Origin: a virus
UHGV virus genome: UHGV-0036008
Strand: one strand, 5' to 3'
Length of the DNA stretch: 42,664 bases
Positions 2,054 through 38,878 of this stretch are shown one piece after another. The first letter of the stretch is position 1; each line of letters begins with the position of its first letter. Made by a program: the position numbers and the translations under genes. The notes under the pieces are model-generated. The model was not told where the DNA came from. It made no database searches and saw only the letters and a list, made by a program, of their open reading frames with translations.

Positions 2054-2202
2054 GGTTTTATGTCCTTTCGATTCGTTCAGATTACCCTGTGTTCAGCAGG
2101 GCGGTCAGGTACTTGAACACCGTCGAAAGTTCGGCCCGCATCCTTAGCCTTGCGGCTGTTTTTCGGTATACGCGCTACCCGACCATATCTGAAAAATGGA
2201 CA

Positions 2203-6615: not shown

Positions 6616-7200
6616 TTATTGTTTGTTTTTTTCGTTCTGGTTGATGACAAATTCAATGTAACTTTCGATCTTTGCTTTCTCGGTTTCGGGTAACAATGCG
6701 TAGCGCGAGCGGTCATAGTTGATGGTCGCAGGGTCGTGCGGGTGAATCAGTAATTCATAGCCGTGACGCCCGAATGCGGATGCAACATTCTCCAGGGTGG
6801 AAATGGAAACGCTGACCTCATTGTTTAACAGGCGACTGATTGTCACCTGGGCGACGCCGGATGCGCGGTGAAGTTTTCCCTGCGTTGAAAGGTCGCGGCT
6901 TTCGCTCATCCAGCGTTCCAGGTTGTGAGCCGCCAGCTGACCAATGTCGCTTGGGCCGACAGGCTGAAAACCTTCCTGAGAAAGCGAGCGATCGATATCA
7001 AGCCAGTTACGGGGTTTATTGGCGGCAGCTTCAATTTTTCGCGCAACCTGGTCGCCGATAACCTTCTTGCCAAGAGCCCAGCGGTTTACCAGATTTGCCT
7101 GAGTTCCAAGTTTTTCTGCCATCCGCGTCTGAACACCATTGAATTCACGGTCGATCAAGTCGTTGAGATTTTGCCTGCGGACGTCCTGGATACTTTTCAT
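6616..7200 (-). CDS. Prophage repressor, tandem XRE-type HTH, no S24 peptidase domain
   Basis: 194 aa; two HTH-like segments (QTRMAEKLGTQANLVNRW and ASGVAQVTISRLLNNEVS); sits between OL- and OR-like operator clusters, divergent from cro-like gene. Confidence 0.6.
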   Translation of the reverse strand: MKSIQDVRRQNLNDLIDREFNGVQTRMAEKLGTQANLVNRWALGKKVIGDQVARKIEAAANKPRNWLDIDRSLSQEGFQPVGPSDIGQLAAHNLERWMSESRDLSTQGKLHRASGVAQVTISRLLNNEVSVSISTLENVASAFGRHGYELLIHPHDPATINYDRSRYALLPETEKAKIESYIEFVINQNEKNKQ

Positions 7201-9585: not shown

Positions 9586-9664
9586 ATTACCTGGCGGGTA
9601 ATAAAATATTCTAAAATCTATTGATTTCGTGTCTTATGTGGTTTTTAATTACCTCAAGGGTAAA
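9586..9664. promoter_or_regulatory. Two ATTACC-N5-GGTAA palindromes; the second ends 2 nt before the ATG at 9667
   Basis: ATTACCtggcgGGTAAT at about 9586..9602; ATTACCtcaagGGTAAA at about 9648..9664. Confidence 0.55.
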
Positions 9665-16042: not shown

Positions 16043-16119
16043 TGGCGTGGCATGCAGGATTCGAACCTGCGACCAACCGCTTAGAAAGCGGTTGCTCTGT
16101 CCAGCTGAGCTAATGCCAC
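16043..16119 (-). tRNA. tRNA-Arg (anticodon UCU), phage-encoded, argU-like
   Basis: 77-nt cloverleaf read from reverse complement: acceptor GTGGCAT/ATGCCAC, D-arm GCTC/GAGC, anticodon stem ACCGC/GCGGT with loop TTTCTAA, T-arm GCAGG-TTCGAAT-CCTGC, 3' CCA. Confidence 0.85.
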
Positions 16120-16440: not shown

Positions 16441-16457
16441 GTTACCTGAAAGGTAAT
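16441..16457. promoter_or_regulatory. ATTACC-N5-GGTAAT-type site (GTTACCtgaaaGGTAAT) in divergent region between tRNA locus and head operon
   Basis: Read from sequence. Confidence 0.5.
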
Positions 16458-34554: not shown

Positions 34555-35283
34555 ATGGAAGTTTTCTGGATAGTTGTTGGTGTGGTTGCGGTGATTATTT
34601 ACGTTATCAACCAGAACAAGACTAAGATCTCTGATCGTACGGTCGTTAATCAGAACAAAACGATAAAGACCGAAGATGGGGAGGTAACGATTAGTCGTAC
34701 ACAGGTGATAGAACACACATCTACTCAGTTTCAAAAAACTGGAGGTAACGCGCCTGATATTTCCGTACCTCCTGCTTATGATAGTGCGGTAATCCAGACA
34801 TATTATAAACAGCAGGAGTTAGCAAAAGAGAGGCAACTGATTCAGCCAAAGCCGTTTACAGCTGAGCTTCCACCTGGAGTGTCAACGCGTCCGGCATATC
34901 ATGGAAGATTCCCTGGTGATGACATATCGTCTCAGTCATCTAAAAAAGCACCTCAGGCAGTATCAGAGCCAGCAAGAATACCTTCTGTATCGCCGCCAAA
35001 AGAAGAATCAGCTAACAGAGTTTCAAGTGGCCGCAAGCAGTGTTTGCGATGCAGAATAAACCTTCCATATGACAAATTCCGGAAATCGTCAAAAAATCCA
35101 GATGGATTGACTAAGTGGTGTGCAAGGTGCCTCGATGGCCCAAAGAATACACGCCATATGAAGTGGTGCCCAATTTGTAATGTCCGCAGAAAACGGACCA
35201 GCTTTTACCCTAATAATCAAAATGCGGACGGCTTAATGGCATGGTGCAAAACGTGCTGGGACGAGCACAAAGCGAAACGATAG
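34555..35283 (+). CDS. Membrane-anchored protein with duplicated C-terminal zinc-ribbon motif
   Basis: N-terminal TM helix (VFWIVVGVVAVIIYVI); two repeats of C-x2-C...N-x-DGL-x2-WC-x2-C. Confidence 0.5.
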   Translation: MEVFWIVVGVVAVIIYVINQNKTKISDRTVVNQNKTIKTEDGEVTISRTQVIEHTSTQFQKTGGNAPDISVPPAYDSAVIQTYYKQQELAKERQLIQPKPFTAELPPGVSTRPAYHGRFPGDDISSQSSKKAPQAVSEPARIPSVSPPKEESANRVSSGRKQCLRCRINLPYDKFRKSSKNPDGLTKWCARCLDGPKNTRHMKWCPICNVRRKRTSFYPNNQNADGLMAWCKTCWDEHKAKR

Positions 35284-35307
35284 GCCGCTCTTGCGGCCTT
35301 TAAATTT
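35283..35307 (+). terminator. Intrinsic terminator
   Basis: GGCCGCTCTTGCGGCC hairpin followed by TTTAAATTT. Confidence 0.5.
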
Positions 35308-35565
35308 ACCGGGTTTGTTTTCGTAATTGTTCGGCACAATAGTCGAGATGTGTTTGCAGATCCTGCATAGACATCTGTGAGCTGGTGACGTAGTTAATCA
35401 GTGCAGTCAGTTCGGCAAGTGGGCCATCGACATTAAATCCATCCTTATCGAGATCCCGGAGTAATTTCATCAAGTGCGATCCCTCCACCAGTGACCTGAC
35501 GCCTCCCGGCGTGTGAATCCTTTCGGTAAATCCGTCTTCCAGTGGATAGTGATACTGCTGCATCT
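35306..35565 (-). CDS. Stand-alone copy of the antirepressor C-terminal domain (86 aa)
   Basis: From internal Met with GGAGAAG RBS; YHYPLEDGFTERIHTPGGVRSLVEGSHLMKLLRDLDKDGFNVDGPLAELT...DLQTH aligns with C-termini of ORFs 1334..2053 and 33447..34157. Confidence 0.45.
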
Positions 35566-35638
35566 TATCTTCTCCATGCAATAACTGTATGTTTATACAG
35601 TAACAAATAATTTGTTTGCTATCCAGCACGTTTTGCAA

Positions 35639-35655
35639 ATTACCCGAAAGGTAAT
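35639..35655. promoter_or_regulatory. ATTACC-N5-GGTAAT site between stand-alone domain gene and tailspike
   Basis: ATTACCcgaaaGGTAAT. Confidence 0.5.
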
Positions 35656-35758: not shown

Positions 35759-38700
35759 ATGACGGTCTCAACCGAAGTTGACCACAACGAATACACCGGT
35801 AACGGCGTTACGACATCGTTTCCGTATACTTTTCGAATTTTCAGAAAATCAGACCTGGTTGTTCAGGTGTCTGACCTGAACGGGAACGTAACAGAATTGG
35901 TCCTGGATACCGGTTATACGGTAACTGGGGCGGGCACTTATAGTGGCGGTTCTGTGGTTCTTCCGTCTCCGCTTGCTACTGGATGGCGAATTACGATAGA
36001 TCGTGTGCTTGATGTAGTGCAGGACACAGACCTTCGCAATCAGGGAAAATTTTTCCCCGAAGTGCATGAAGATGCCTTTGACTACCTGACGATGCTGATC
36101 CAGCAATGTTTTGGGTGGTTCAGACGTGCATTGATGAAGCCCTCTCTGCTTGCAAAATATTACGATGCAAAGCAAAACAAAATTTCTAACCTTGCAGATC
36201 CATCATTTGAGCAGGACGCTGTAAATAATCGCTCAATGCGTAATTATGTCGATGCTGCAATCGCCGGAGTTGTTGGTGGTTTTGGTTGGTTTATTCAGTA
36301 TGGTTCTGGGGCTGTGTACCGAACGTTCCAGGATAAAATGCGTGATGCTATTAGCCCCAAAGATTTTGGAGCTGTTGGTGATGGTATAAATGACGATTCC
36401 ACTGCAATAAGCGCGTGCCTTGAAGCCTCATCTCCAGGTTATAAAATTGACGGATTAGGGCTTACTTTTAAAGTATCAACTCTTCCGGATGTCAGTCGAT
36501 TTAAAAATGCTCGTTTTTTATTTGAGAGAATACCGGGCCAGCCTCTTTTTTATGCTTCTGAAGATTTTATCCAGGGAGAGTTATTTAAAATTACAGATAC
36601 ACCGTGGTACAACGCCTGGACGCAGGATAAAACGTTTGTATATGACAATGTCATCTATGCGCCTTTTATGGCTGGAGACCGCCATGGTGTGAATAACCTC
36701 CATGTTGCATGGGTTCGCTCAGGAGATGACGGGAAGACCTGGACAACGCCGGAATGGCTTACAGATTTACATGAAAACTATCCCACAGTTAACTATCACT
36801 GCATGAGTATGGGGGTTGTCAGAAATCGCCTTTTTGCTGTAATTGAGACGCGGACCGTGAGAGGAAATAAACTGCAGGTTGCAGAGTTGTGGGATCGCCC
36901 AATGAGTCGCAGCCTTCGCGTTTATGGTGGTATAACGAAAGCAGCAAATCAGCAAGTCGCTTATATTCGCATTACTGATCACGGATTATTTGCTGGTGAT
37001 TTTGTCAACTTCTCAAACTCTGGTGTTACAGGTGTTACCGGGAATATGACGGTGACTACTGTTATTGATAAAAATACCTTTACAGTTACGACGCAAAATA
37101 CCCAGGATGTGGATCAGAATAACGAGGGTAGATACTGGAGTTTTGGCACATCATTTCACTCGTCACCATGGAGAAAAACCAGTCTTGGAACTATTCCTTC
37201 TTTTGTTGACGGAAGCACTCCTGTTACTGAGATTCACAGTTTTGCGACGATTAGCGATAACAGTTTTGCTGTTGGCTACCATAATGGTGATATTGGTCCA
37301 CGCGAGCTTGGGATACTCTATTTCTCTGATGCTTTCGGTTCTCCTGGTAGCTTTGTTCGCAGACGCATACCTGTAGAATATGAGGCGAATGCATCTGAGC
37401 CATGTGTAAAATATTATGATGGCATTCTGTATCTGACGACCAGGGGGACATTAAGTACTCAACCCGGTAGTTCATTGCACAGAAGCTCTGATTTAGGTAC
37501 ATCATGGAATTCTCTTCGCTTCCCAAATAATGTTCATCACTCAAACCTTCCTTTTGCCAAAGTTGGCGATGAGCTGATTATTTTTGGCAGTGAGCGCGCA
37601 TTTGGTGAGTGGGAAGGAGGAGAACCTGATAACCGTTATGCAGGAAATTATCCAAGAACATTTATGACCAGAGTTAACGTCAATGAGTGGAGTCTGGATA
37701 ATGTAGAGTGGGTTAATGTTACTGATCAGATTTATCAGGGCGGAATAGTTAACTCTGCGGTTGGTGTTGGTTCAGTTTGTATCAAAGACAACTGGCTGTA
37801 CTACATTTTCGGTGGGGAAGACTTTCTAAACCCATGGAGCATAGGGGATAACAACAGAAAATATCCTTATGTTCACGATGGTCACCCGGCTGATTTGTAT
37901 TGTTTCAGGGTGAAAATTAAACAGGAAGAATTTGTTTCAAGGGATTTTGTCTACGGAGCCACTCCTAACAGAACGCTTCCTACTTTTATGTCGACGTCAG
38001 GCGTGAGGACGGTTCCTGTACCCGTTGATTTCACAGATGATGTTGCCGTCCAGTCACTGACTGTCCATGCAGGTACATCAGGACAAGTTCGCGCGGAAGT
38101 CAAACTTGAGGGTAATTACGCCATTATTGCGAAGAAAGTACCGTCTGATGATGTTACCGCTCAGAGATTAATCGTTAGCGGCGGTGAAACAACGTCTTCA
38201 GCAGATGGTGCAATGATAACGTTGCATGGTTCCGGAAGCAGTACTCCACGTCGCGCGGTATATAACGCACTCGAACATCTTTTTGAGAACGGAGATGTTA
38301 AACCTTATCTTGATAATGTAAATGCTCTTGGTGGTCCGGGAAACAGGTTCTCGACAGTTTATCTTGGCTCCAATCCTGTGGTTACCAGTGACGGAACATT
38401 AAAGACAGAGCCGGTCTCTCCTGACGAAGCATTGCTGGATGCCTGGGGTGACGTCAGGTATATCGCTTATAAATGGCTGAACGCTGTCGCTATAAAGGGG
38501 GAAGAAGGGGCGAGGATACATCATGGTGTAATCGCGCAGCAACTTCGTGATGTTCTTATTTCTCACGGACTCATGGAAGAAGAAAGCACAACATGCCGCT
38601 ATGCCTTTCTTTGCTATGACGATTATCCCGCAGTATATGATGACGTCATTACTGGCCAAAGGGAAATGCCGCTGACTGATAATGACGGGAGCATCATTGT

Positions 38701-38878
38701 TGATGAGGATGATAATCCAGTGATGGTAATAGAAGACATCATTGAGCGCGTTGAAATAACGCCAGCAGGATCTAGATGGGGGGTCAGACCTGATCTCTTA
38801 TTCTATATCGAGGCAGCATGGCAGCGCAGAGAAATGGATAAGATAAAAGAGCGGGTTCAGTCTCTGGAAGAACGTTAA
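35759..38878 (+). CDS. Tailspike / tail fibre with depolymerase-type domain and C-terminal S74 intramolecular chaperone
   Basis: 1039 aa; T7-tail-fibre-like N-terminus (NEYTGNGVTTSFPYTFRIF); DFGAVGDGINDDSTAI beta-helix motif; Asp-boxes SGDDGKTW and SSDLGTSW; C-terminal SDGTLKTE...HHGVIAQQL autoprocessing signature. Confidence 0.8.
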   Translation: MTVSTEVDHNEYTGNGVTTSFPYTFRIFRKSDLVVQVSDLNGNVTELVLDTGYTVTGAGTYSGGSVVLPSPLATGWRITIDRVLDVVQDTDLRNQGKFFPEVHEDAFDYLTMLIQQCFGWFRRALMKPSLLAKYYDAKQNKISNLADPSFEQDAVNNRSMRNYVDAAIAGVVGGFGWFIQYGSGAVYRTFQDKMRDAISPKDFGAVGDGINDDSTAISACLEASSPGYKIDGLGLTFKVSTLPDVSRFKNARFLFERIPGQPLFYASEDFIQGELFKITDTPWYNAWTQDKTFVYDNVIYAPFMAGDRHGVNNLHVAWVRSGDDGKTWTTPEWLTDLHENYPTVNYHCMSMGVVRNRLFAVIETRTVRGNKLQVAELWDRPMSRSLRVYGGITKAANQQVAYIRITDHGLFAGDFVNFSNSGVTGVTGNMTVTTVIDKNTFTVTTQNTQDVDQNNEGRYWSFGTSFHSSPWRKTSLGTIPSFVDGSTPVTEIHSFATISDNSFAVGYHNGDIGPRELGILYFSDAFGSPGSFVRRRIPVEYEANASEPCVKYYDGILYLTTRGTLSTQPGSSLHRSSDLGTSWNSLRFPNNVHHSNLPFAKVGDELIIFGSERAFGEWEGGEPDNRYAGNYPRTFMTRVNVNEWSLDNVEWVNVTDQIYQGGIVNSAVGVGSVCIKDNWLYYIFGGEDFLNPWSIGDNNRKYPYVHDGHPADLYCFRVKIKQEEFVSRDFVYGATPNRTLPTFMSTSGVRTVPVPVDFTDDVAVQSLTVHAGTSGQVRAEVKLEGNYAIIAKKVPSDDVTAQRLIVSGGETTSSADGAMITLHGSGSSTPRRAVYNALEHLFENGDVKPYLDNVNALGGPGNRFSTVYLGSNPVVTSDGTLKTEPVSPDEALLDAWGDVRYIAYKWLNAVAIKGEEGARIHHGVIAQQLRDVLISHGLMEEESTTCRYAFLCYDDYPAVYDDVITGQREMPLTDNDGSIIVDEDDNPVMVIEDIIERVEITPAGSRWGVRPDLLFYIEAAWQRREMDKIKERVQSLEER

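Follow-up and report, generated by a model that had tools for sequence, protein, structure and literature searches.

The window analysed here is a stretch of 42,664 nucleotides from a virus genome (UHGV-0036008). On its plus strand, positions 34555–35283 carry an open reading frame of 242 aa with an ATG start and a Shine-Dalgarno sequence, GAGGA, at 34544–48. The protein gives a full-length match to the PHROG family phrog_6762 (function unknown) with an E-value of 1e-148, and the open reading frame is a real, conserved, uncharacterised prophage gene. The features of the locus, together with the distant repressor gene, are as follows.

6616..7200, minus strand: immunity repressor with tandem HTH and no S24 domain, the presumed binder of the palindrome
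34427..34441, no strand: backbone operator copy at the leftward isrK-C4-ant promoter, part of the neighbouring unit and not of the cassette
34448..35305, plus strand: accessory (moron) cassette, consisting of promoter/operator region, open reading frame and terminator
34498..34526, plus strand: candidate sigma-70 promoter TTGATC-17-TACCTT, overlapping the operator; weak, predicted from sequence
34520..34534, no strand: operator-like palindrome TTACCTTTAAGGTAA, 15 bp, 20 nt before the ATG
34555..35283, plus strand: coding sequence, 242 aa, RefSeq WP_021518473.1, labelled "hypothetical protein"
34561..34617, plus strand: predicted single transmembrane anchor, N-out/C-in, residues 3–21 (hydropathy, positive-inside statistics, AF2)
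34639..34710, plus strand: juxtamembrane beta-hairpin, residues 29–52 (AF2 and conservation)
34720..35028, plus strand: Pro/Ser/Gln linker, low-complexity and variable, residues 56–158
35035..35139, plus strand: zinc repeat 1, residues 161–195 (C163, C166, C189, C192), beta4-alpha
35161..35280, plus strand: zinc repeat 2, residues 203–242 (C205, C208, C231, C234), beta4-alpha, with a basic RRKRTS segment
35282..35299, plus strand: intrinsic terminator hairpin GGCCGC-TCTT-GCGGCC followed by a T-tract, −14.4 kcal/mol, z = −3.1

The gene lies in a cassette of about 860 bp that is present or absent at the same site among close relatives. The HEMP4 sequence matches the window up to 34447 and resumes at 35306 with about 25 unrelated bp between, and phiV10 matches up to 34431 and then again from 35306. 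The cassette is missing from phiV10, HEMP4, ZX5 and others, while both flanks are common to all. Among 5426 complete E. coli genomes the flanks are found in 532 and the cassette in 128, that is, in 128 of the 532 flank carriers. The preliminary description had placed the gene in a moron island with a terminator of its own, and both statements hold: the cassette is an independent accessory unit, and it ends in a convincing terminator. In the Providencia and Serratia orthologues a hairpin is likewise situated directly 3′ of the stop codon. The promoter of the cassette is a weaker candidate, which overlaps the operator and scores 7/12, under the threshold of the scanner. A non-essential, horizontally mobile prophage accessory gene is thus well supported.

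The cassette lies between two exact copies of an 11-nt direct repeat, TAAATTTACCG (34422 and 35301). They suggested a transposon-like insertion with target-site duplication, but this was rejected, since the empty site of HEMP4 is a replacement of about 25 bp and the left repeat is backbone sequence. The repeats are read as recombination at an operator-like sequence, not as a duplication. The backbone operator copy at 34427–34441 is also present in phiV10 and HEMP4, both of which are without the open reading frame, and minus-strand promoter-like sites are found at 34470–34441 and 34425–34397. A 26-nt imperfect inverted repeat is also seen between the C4/ant leader (34183–34208) and codons 6–14 of the open reading frame. 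As an antisense target it was set aside, as by eye it gives just 5–6 contiguous pairs with C4.

The operator and the immunity repressor

The preliminary description gave the gene an operator of its own. The palindrome is not private to it: the window contains 14 copies of this phage-wide TTACC-N5-GGTAA palindrome, 34520–34534 among them, where 0.86 copies are expected by chance. Other copies flank the immunity repressor gene in pairs (6482/6544 and 7256/7304), and others precede antirepressor genes. As the operator is one of these 14 copies, the 242-aa gene appears to be wired into the repressor regulon. The copy at the promoter is kept in orthologues. It lies 32–36 nt upstream of the ATG in 53 of 53 E. 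coli-type loci, and at the same 32–36 nt in all 60 eps15-type loci with the motif type, whose flanks are divergent. In orthologues with 62–64% identity the flanking sequence has diverged and the palindrome is still kept upstream of the ATG; in the Serratia cassette the similarity begins exactly at the operator.

The presumed ligand of these sites, the repressor encoded at 6616–7200, shows two HTH regions (Pfam), and its protein sequence is 100% identical to the annotated vB_EcoP_ZX5 repressor. Over-expression of the latter abolished free phage (PMC9782041). The operator at position 16442 displays the same layout of −35 element, 17-nt spacer and TACCTT as the candidate promoter of the cassette, with a perfect TTGACA. 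From this arrangement the 242-aa gene may be repressed, not expressed, in a lysogen of the window phage. Activation by operator-bound repressor was rejected because the 20-nt gap between operator and ATG leaves no room for a downstream promoter. In the window the gene is situated between a small Ant-like gene controlled by a LexA box and the isrK-C4-ant operon, which share the same operator type.

Membrane anchor, linker and zinc repeats

The protein consists of four parts, a membrane anchor, a juxtamembrane beta-hairpin, a Pro/Ser/Gln linker and two tandem Cys4 repeats. Hydropathy, AF2 and alignments agree with the earlier outline of one N-terminal transmembrane helix, a Pro/Ser linker and two C-terminal motif copies. 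Residues 3–21 give a Kyte-Doolittle value of 2.7, and AF2 places a helix at 2–21 with a pLDDT of about 90. In 38 family members no K or R precedes the helix and a mean of 3.6 is found in the 15 residues after it, and thus an N-out/C-in topology is predicted. A bitopic inner-membrane protein, with two residues predicted to be periplasmic and the remainder cytoplasmic, is well supported by these features.

The hairpin is modelled as strands 29–39 and 42–52 (pLDDT about 80), and T39 and G42 are invariant in 29 close homologues. The hairpin shows dN values of 0.17–0.30, compared with 0.8–0.9 for the linker; both terminal regions lie within 0.10–0.30, with dS saturated. The linker contains 14 Pro, 14 Ser and 9 Gln per 103 residues and has low AF2 confidence (pLDDT about 50). 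Linkers of 40–100 residues are found, the length varying by more than 50 residues in both the 29-homologue and the 38-sequence alignments. Natural frameshifted alleles are broken in the linker and retain the transmembrane half alone.

The first repeat reads C163-x2-C166-x8-F175-x5-N181-x-D183GL-x2-W188C189-x2-C192 and the second C205-x2-C208-x8-F217-x5-N223-x-D225GL-x2-W230C231-x2-C234. Both copies of the motif in the preliminary description are real, with a small miscount in the first spacer, which is x8 to the Phe and not x(9–11). In 38 sequences with a mean column identity of 27%, the eight Cys, the two Trp, G184 and D225 never vary, and a C-terminal-domain profile retrieves 2919 proteins at E ≤ 1e-3. 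The two-repeat pattern is far beyond chance. AF2 models the repeats as two beta4-alpha units with a pLDDT of about 88–95.

The repeat had been described as not belonging to a named domain, but a name can be given. Pfam Stc1 (PF12898) matches residues 161–193 only, with 21.5 bits and an E-value of 3.5e-4, under the 24.8-bit gathering threshold; relatives found with the C-terminal profile pass that threshold with 25.4, 33.9, 39.2 and 56.2 bits. Four CxxC pairs that would form tandem zinc sites are present, and the likeness to Stc1 consists of two successive CxxC...CxxC sites with an F/Y...DG...(W)CxxC signature. The best structural match of the repeats, from a domain-only model, is to the two zinc repeats of the restriction enzyme Hpy99I. 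In BFVD there are 38 matches at E ≤ 1e-3 (HNH, endonuclease VII, beta-beta-alpha-Me and "Stc1 domain" viral proteins), and PHROG families named endonuclease VII, HNH and Lar-like match the zinc repeats only. A sequence search of the PDB gave XPA and PacI as marginal matches, a Foldseek search of the PDB with the full-length model gave only noise (best E = 0.85), and NCBIfam gave 0 matches to the 242-aa protein. An assignment of the repeats to the Stc1-type or HNH-accessory zinc module, as found beside HNH and endonuclease VII nucleases, is well supported.

The C-terminal domain is strongly basic, with 21 K/R and 6 D/E per 84 residues and a pI of about 10, and its pI across the family is 9.4–10.3. 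The domain is presumed to bind zinc and may bind DNA. The founding Stc1 domain carries tandem "LIM-like" zinc fingers that contact Ago1 protein, not DNA (PMC2875855). Stc1 of S. pombe is a soluble nuclear adaptor, whereas the 242-aa protein is phage-encoded, predicted to be membrane-tethered and extremely basic. Unlike Hpy99I (PDB 3fc3) and PacI (zinc site, 3m7k), it is without the Asp-His...Asn set and without a beta-barrel domain, it carries a membrane anchor, and sequence-specific DNA binding is not indicated. Extra zinc-ribbon domains occur on phage HNH nickases (PMC3592412). A similar module is seen in P0057, a relative found by the profile, which has a C-terminal HNH domain; compared with such zinc-ribbon-fused phage nucleases, the 242-aa protein has a membrane anchor in place of the nuclease domain. 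A zinc-binding anti-sigma factor (ZAS) was rejected: the domain order is reversed with the transmembrane segment first, HxxxCxxC is absent and there is no Pfam match.

Relatives and their gene neighbourhoods

About 25 genomic contexts of the family were examined and all are prophages or mobile elements. Homology to a housekeeping zinc-ribbon protein was part of what the preliminary description named as counting against its proposal, and no housekeeping homologue was found among these contexts. The hosts are Escherichia, Salmonella, Serratia, Providencia, Edwardsiella, Yersinia, Aeromonas, Acinetobacter, Haemophilus and marine Gammaproteobacteria. All records label the family members "hypothetical protein", and a literature search on the family, PF12898 and membrane zinc-ribbon prophage proteins gave nothing relevant.

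In at least six lineages the family gene is found immediately 3′ of cI on the same strand, e.g. 11–55 bp after cI-type repressors in Neptunomonas, Marinobacterium, Acinetobacter, Aeromonas phage phiARM81mr and one IMG/VR lineage. In three lineages it is convergent with cI and abuts it. Some lineages carry it downstream of mnt/arc-type genes, and two members are situated directly after mnt, between ejection-protein genes and the immI region. The gene is also found beside antirepressor-type genes of the Bro-N, KilA-N, pRha or ORF6N kind. In two lineages it is a moron inserted on the opposite strand within the tail genes, at a distance from any regulator; one such copy has a DUF6246 gene on one side and the tape-measure gene on the other. 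In several phages it is on the strand opposite to the late genes. HK97 gp15 is a tail-region moron as well; this small membrane protein has no zinc fingers and is likened here by position alone. A conserved partner gene was not found in these neighbourhoods: in two lineages the genes downstream, of 280 aa and 287 aa, are not related, and small upstream genes differ from lineage to lineage.

Candidate functions

The fold by itself would allow an active membrane-bound HNH or beta-beta-alpha-Me nuclease that cuts incoming DNA. The domain matches the zinc-bearing cores of Hpy99I and PacI, its PHROG and BFVD matches include endonuclease VII and HNH proteins, and the Cys4 zinc site that stabilises the beta-beta-alpha-Me fold is present. 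The general-base His and the metal-binding Asn/His on the helix are absent: no His or Asn is invariant in the two repeats (38 sequences), an invariant or near-invariant Gly follows the conserved Asp (D183-G184, D225-G226) where the nucleases have their general-base His, and the residue after the second CxxC is L193 or W235. In Hpy99I, which has two beta4-alpha2 Cys4 repeats, catalysis requires Asp148, His149 and Asn165, and the non-catalytic first repeat reads the DNA major groove (PMC2699513). A zinc domain that is nuclease-like but non-catalytic is thus well supported from sequence, and an active nuclease is very improbable. A basic, DNA-binding-like domain could alternatively serve the development of the phage itself, or anti-defence, by tethering or protecting phage DNA at the membrane when repressor is absent (end shielding, replication or packaging, titration of host nuclease), and from the position of the operator the gene would be expected to be expressed upon infection or induction. 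However, the gene is dispensable, viable phages phiV10, HEMP4 and ZX5 being without it (PMC9782041), several phages have it opposite to the late genes, and in other lineages its co-transcription with cI or mnt suggests that lysogens express it. Such a helper role is quite unlikely.

Two further readings depend on the neighbourhood of repressor genes. In lambda, rexAB follows cI, and the family gene occupies this position in at least six lineages. A Rex-like abortive infection, in which the zinc domain senses phage DNA or protein and the transmembrane segment and hairpin oligomerise, depolarise the membrane and kill or arrest the cell, would also fit the conservation of the segment and hairpin beyond the needs of a mere anchor. 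It would have to be a single-protein system, as no partner gene is conserved, whereas the Rex system comprises two proteins and includes a polytopic channel. The 242-aa protein has one transmembrane helix without a charged or polar pore-lining pattern and no sequence similarity to Rex, including RexB, or to PADLOC effectors; in the window phage, unlike lambda rexAB, its gene is outside the repressor operon. The alleles that keep only the transmembrane half occur in natural strains, which speaks against strong toxicity of this half alone, and abortive infection of this kind is unlikely. Of similar, low likelihood is a role in the lysis-lysogeny circuit, with the tethered zinc module sequestering or sensing an antirepressor, a repressor or a host factor (FtsH, RecA, LexA partners) and tuning establishment or induction. 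The gene adjoins cI, mnt, arc or antirepressor genes in most lineages, its place in the window between the Ant-like gene and the isrK-C4-ant operon is of the same kind, and Stc1 zinc fingers are a protein-protein interaction module. But the regulators beside it come from unrelated families (S24 CI, tandem-HTH, Arc/Mnt, Bro-N, KilA-N, pRha), which makes a specific protein partner unlikely, close relatives with identical repressor and ant genes do without the gene, and the two lineages with the gene among tail genes have no regulator nearby.

The best explanation, to which we give a probability of about 0.4, is a membrane-tethered, DNA- or protein-binding exclusion or defence factor. In temperate phages the slots just after cI or mnt repeatedly hold exclusion or defence determinants (rexAB, sieA). 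The family gene is a good phage-exclusion candidate because it is found beside phage repressor genes in many Gammaproteobacteria, and superinfection exclusion is plausible on position, whether the gene follows cI, follows mnt or is a moron among tail genes. The anchor and linker would leash the zinc domain at the inner membrane face, where it might bind nucleic acid in the manner of the non-catalytic first repeat of Hpy99I or, alternatively, the cytoplasmic end of the DNA-delivery apparatus. Either target would allow interference with foreign phage DNA during entry. The prophage, or the phage at an early stage of infection, would use it in this way. The immunity repressor would control the gene in the window phage via the operator at 34520–34534, and in other lineages the family gene would be co-transcribed with cI or mnt. 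A conserved operator that overlaps the likely promoter suggests repression in the lysogen and is a poor fit to classical exclusion by a protein that the lysogen expresses; exclusion early in the lytic cycle, of the T4 Imm and Sp kind, is possible. More tentative, and somewhat doubtful in this specific form, is a hitherto unrecognised single-gene defence or exclusion system of gammaproteobacterial prophages in which a catalytically dead, membrane-leashed double zinc finger captures incoming DNA or the tip of the injection conduit.

No homology to Rex, SieA or known exclusion or defence proteins was found with PADLOC, NCBIfam and the SieA features; PADLOC-DB v2 (5027 models) gave 0 families at E ≤ 0.1 for the 242-aa protein. 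P22 SieA resembles it as an accessory inner-membrane protein of temperate podophages with a mnt-adjacent slot: sieA lies with mnt, and its product is an inner-membrane injection blocker of 162–164 aa with three transmembrane helices and a cytoplasmic motif FxRYPxEAxxFNK (PMC10883804). Homology to SieA was rejected, as the 242-aa protein has one transmembrane helix, two zinc repeats and no FxRYPxEAxxFNK. With only two residues predicted to be periplasmic, it would not act in the presumed manner of periplasm-facing Sie proteins. If it captures DNA or the conduit tip at entry, it would represent cytoplasmic-side exclusion distinct from these proteins, and as an exclusion factor it would be of a mechanistically new type, cytoplasmic-side and zinc-finger-based with no enzymatic activity. 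Such a factor would also matter when phage-therapy host ranges are predicted for E. coli lysogens, K1 included. The protein is also a small, tractable model for the widespread and functionally obscure "Stc1-type" zinc module of bacteria and viruses. In ZipA, which has no sequence or fold kinship to the protein and is an architectural analogy only, an N-out anchor at the N-terminus is likewise joined by a long, flexible linker rich in Pro and Gln to a globular C-terminal binding domain in the cytoplasm.

Protein architecture and the zinc repeats

The open reading frame at 34555-35283 (+) is carried by an E. coli prophage of the epsilon15/phiV10-like (Uetakevirus-type) group. It starts at an ATG preceded by GAGGA (34544-48) and encodes 242 amino acids. 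RefSeq lists the product as WP_021518473.1, 'hypothetical protein', the annotation of family members everywhere examined, and its full-length PHROG family, phrog_6762, is of unknown function. TL-2011b, the top phage match to the window (94%), has the open reading frame intact but recorded as a misc_feature.

Segments of the 242 aa product
3-21, one hydrophobic helix
29-52, conserved beta-hairpin
56-158, Pro/Ser/Gln-rich linker, low model confidence, length variable across the family
repeat 1, C163-x2-C166-x8-F-x5-N-x-DGL-x2-WC189-x2-C192
repeat 2, C205-x2-C208-x8-F-x5-N-x-DGL-x2-WC231-x2-C234

The single N-terminal transmembrane helix and Pro/Ser-rich linker of the preliminary description are both found, as are its two tandem motif copies, although the first spacer is x8 to the Phe and not x(9-11). 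In an alignment of 38 family sequences (27% mean column identity), no variation is seen at the eight Cys, the two Trp, G184 or D225. These invariant residues, with a dN of 0.10-0.30 in both terminal regions vs 0.8-0.9 in the linker (dS saturated), indicate a real gene under selection. None of the 38 members has K/R before the helix and the 15 residues after it contain a mean of 3.6, thus the positive-inside rule predicts that only the two N-terminal residues lie outside and that the remainder is cytoplasmic. The eight predicted zinc-ligand cysteines would also be compatible with a cytoplasmic location.

The repeat had not been recognised as a named domain, but Pfam, PHROG and BFVD matches place it with Stc1 (PF12898)-, HNH- and endonuclease VII-associated zinc domains. 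The Pfam Stc1 match is 21.5 bits, slightly under the 24.8-bit cut-off. Searching with a profile of the 88 C-terminal residues retrieves 2919 proteins at E<=1e-3 from 1.84 billion representatives; these include soluble multi-repeat relatives that exceed the Stc1 threshold, some of them fused to HNH, SF1-helicase or HEAT domains. Among PHROG families, those with the annotation endonuclease VII, HNH or Lar-like match within the zinc repeats only, and in BFVD 38 viral proteins of the HNH, beta-beta-alpha-Me, endonuclease VII and 'Stc1 domain' kinds match at E<=1e-3. In structure prediction, proposed earlier as a check, AF2 folds the C-terminal domain with confidence into two beta4-alpha units (pLDDT >90 in the full-length model; 87.7, pTM 0.66, for the domain alone) but gives residues 56-158 low confidence. 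A very recent Pfam entry, PF27269.1, may cover part of the family already; it is listed in the precomputed annotation of two distant members (P0183, P0184) and is absent from the Pfam copy searched.

Hpy99I is a close analogue, with two beta4-alpha2 repeats, each having two CXXC motifs that bind structural zinc. Its catalysis is in the second repeat only (Asp148, His149, Asn165), and the first is a non-catalytic reader of the DNA major groove (PMC2699513). Neither repeat of the present family has a conserved His or Asn in the 38-sequence alignment, and Asp-Gly replaces the Asp-His pair. We therefore read the C-terminal domain as a probable non-catalytic binding module; an active nuclease is unlikely, as the catalytic residues are missing. 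The domain is basic (21 K/R vs 6 D/E; pI 9.4-10.3 across the family), which would favour a polyanion ligand. Homologous fingers of S. pombe Stc1 bind a protein, Ago1 (PMC2875855).

Frameshifted alleles keeping only the N-terminal half are found in some strains. Those of E. coli proteins P0010, P0012, P0017 and P0185 retain the transmembrane segment, hairpin and some of the linker, and lose both zinc repeats. The gene is decaying in some lysogens and the membrane half by itself is apparently tolerated. Anchor-less variants also exist (locus L109, 3551-4270; locus L023, 3881-4261). One Acinetobacter prophage carries a separate 98-aa membrane protein between cI and a zinc-repeat gene lacking the transmembrane segment, which may be a split form of the same architecture.

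Presumed immunity operators

The palindrome TTACCTTTAAGGTAA at 34520-34534 is 20 nt upstream of the ATG, and the sole plausible promoter, the weak TTGATC-17-TACCTT, overlaps it. It is one of 14 copies of TTACC-N5-GGTAA in the window, counted with one mismatch allowed, where 0.86 are expected.

Copies of TTACC-N5-GGTAA, 15 bp each
6482, 6544, 7256, 7304, 7641, 9587, 9649, 13231, 13249, 16442, 33360, 34427, 34520, 35640

Judged from the ORF map, all 14 are intergenic. Pairs flank both sides of gene 6616-7200, whose product shows two HTH regions and no S24 domain and matches the repressor annotated in vB_EcoP_ZX5 at 100% identity. Over-expression of that repressor abolished free phage and lowered lysis-gene transcripts by >99.9% (PMC9782041). 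The palindromes look like a dispersed operator set of this tandem-HTH repressor and call to mind P1, whose C1 operators are likewise scattered. Elsewhere they stand in front of early genes, the isrK-C4-ant operon (34427), a YafO-like module (33360) and a small Ant-like gene (35640). Thus the operator earlier assigned to the zinc-finger gene is real but not private to it, being a copy of the presumed immunity operator of the phage. Copies are often paired, 18, 48 or 62 bp apart, and those at 9649, 13249 and 33360 overlap ribosome-binding sites.

Of E. coli-type IMG/VR loci, 53/53 have the palindrome 32-36 nt ahead of the ATG, and it is likewise kept in orthologues of 62-64% identity where the surrounding sequence has diverged. 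Most simply, the gene would be repressed in the lysogen and switched on by infection or induction.

Family contexts and possible function

The zinc module is already known; literature searches turned up no description of the membrane-tethered architecture, of the family or of its consistent position in immunity regions. Superficieibacter, Enterobacter, Citrobacter, Salmonella, Serratia, Providencia and Buttiauxella carry close homologues, and the architecture recurs in ~45 of the 150 top-ranking 50%-identity clusters from the domain-profile search. Scans of genomes and viral sequences extend the family to Edwardsiella, Acinetobacter, Marinobacterium, Oceanobacter, Haemophilus, Pseudoalteromonas and Neptunomonas, as well as to Yersinia phages YeP4-6 and Aeromonas phage phiARM81mr. 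All contexts examined are prophage or mobile element, and no conserved partner gene was found across them.

Genomic contexts of the family gene
(a) same strand, 11-55 bp after a cI-type repressor: Neptunomonas, Marinobacterium, two Acinetobacter types, one IMG/VR lineage (L101-L108), phiARM81mr
(b) convergent with cI, abutting: three lineages
(c) directly after a Mnt- or Arc-type gene, antirepressor adjoining: two lineages
(d) beside Bro-N, KilA-N, pRha or ORF6N antirepressor-type genes: eps15-like prophages including the window
(e) opposite-strand insert among tail genes: one myovirus-like and one siphovirus-like prophage
(f) within a small integrative island

The repressors of context (a) were confirmed as S24/HTH by Pfam, and in phiARM81mr the neighbours are annotated CI and Cro. 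The family falls among prophage accessory membrane proteins of immunity regions; anatomy, domain identity and the status of an immunity-region-linked mobile accessory gene are well supported. In an Oceanobacter and a Pseudoalteromonas prophage the convergent family gene and cI have 0 bp between stop codons (L022 4597/4598; L025 4255/4256), so either the two transcripts overlap or both end at one terminator within coding sequence.

Where the gap after cI or mnt is 11-18 bp, a separate transcription unit does not fit, so the family gene is made there along with the lysogeny repressor. Lambda rexAB is likewise made together with cI. P22 sieA, a further likeness, adjoins mnt (PMC10883804). A basic, DNA-reader-like zinc domain, flexibly leashed beneath the membrane, would be in a good position to meet entering DNA or the tip of an injection conduit. 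Given this placement and the co-production with the repressor, exclusion or defence ranks first among possible functions, at a probability of about 0.4. The mechanism would then be new, as the product shows no SieA homology and no match to PADLOC models. The chief difficulty for exclusion is the conserved operator predicted in the eps15-like lineage, from which repression in lysogens would be expected; expression at a low level, or early in the lytic cycle, would resolve the conflict. Possible rival readings are an abortive sensor-effector of Rex-like type, a part of the lysis-lysogeny switch that acts by sequestration at the membrane, and a helper or anti-defence function for the phage itself.

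Accessory cassette and neighbouring modules

The phiV10 flanks match the window up to 34431 and those of HEMP4 up to 34447; both resume from 35306, with ~25 unrelated bp between in HEMP4. Of 5426 complete E. coli genomes, 128 carry the ~860-bp cassette and 532 the flanks. A hairpin terminator (-14.4 kcal/mol, z -3.1) closes the cassette, in agreement with the terminator assigned earlier, and Providencia and Serratia orthologues also have a hairpin directly 3' of the stop codon. An exact 11-nt direct repeat TAAATTTACCG, which includes an operator half-site, lies on either side (34422-34432 and 35301-35311). Clean insertion at this repeat was rejected, since the HEMP4 empty site is a replacement; operator-like sequence may instead be a recombination joint for exchange of accessory genes.

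Neighbouring features
2095-2184 (-), sRNA-Xcc1 (Rfam, 64.2 bits)
16046-16119 (-), tRNA gene (Rfam)
32719-33347 (-), 55-aa ORF, then YafO-like toxin-type ORF
33447-34172 (-), Bro-N antirepressor gene
34206-34289 (-), C4 antisense RNA (Rfam, 66 bits)
34314-34390 (-), isrK (Rfam, 67.7 bits)
34465-34486 (-), terminator-like hairpin
35306-35563 (-), 85-aa gene
35585-35600, perfect LexA-box consensus CTGTATGTTTATACAG
35759-38878 (+), 1039-aa tailspike

The tandem isrK-C4 pair, directly upstream of the Bro-N gene, makes this a P1 immI-like/Gifsy IsrK-like antirepressor module under RNA control, here in an eps15-like phage; in Serratia prophages (L003, L005) it also precedes a Bro-N or pRha gene. The hairpin at 34465-34486, in the cassette upstream region, overlaps the -35 element of a promoter-like site pointing leftward (34470-34441) and could shield the isrK-C4-ant operon against antisense transcripts that run through the open reading frame. 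The operator at 33360-33374, before the 55-aa/YafO-like pair, has the same sequence as the copy before the zinc-finger gene. The TL-2011b homologue of the YafO-like ORF is annotated YafO family toxin, but RefSeq has one 210-aa ORF here, thus the gene model is uncertain.

Both the LexA box and the operator at 35640 are upstream of the 85-aa gene. The only domain of its product, phrog_450, recurs at the C-terminus of the Bro-N protein. The gene probably encodes a small antirepressor under SOS control, and this would account for induction although the repressor has no S24 cleavage domain. RefSeq names the tailspike 'endosialidase catalytic beta-propeller domain-containing protein', which would mean a K1-capsule-type tailspike on an epsilon15-like backbone; phiV10 and TL-2011b have other tail fibres at this position.
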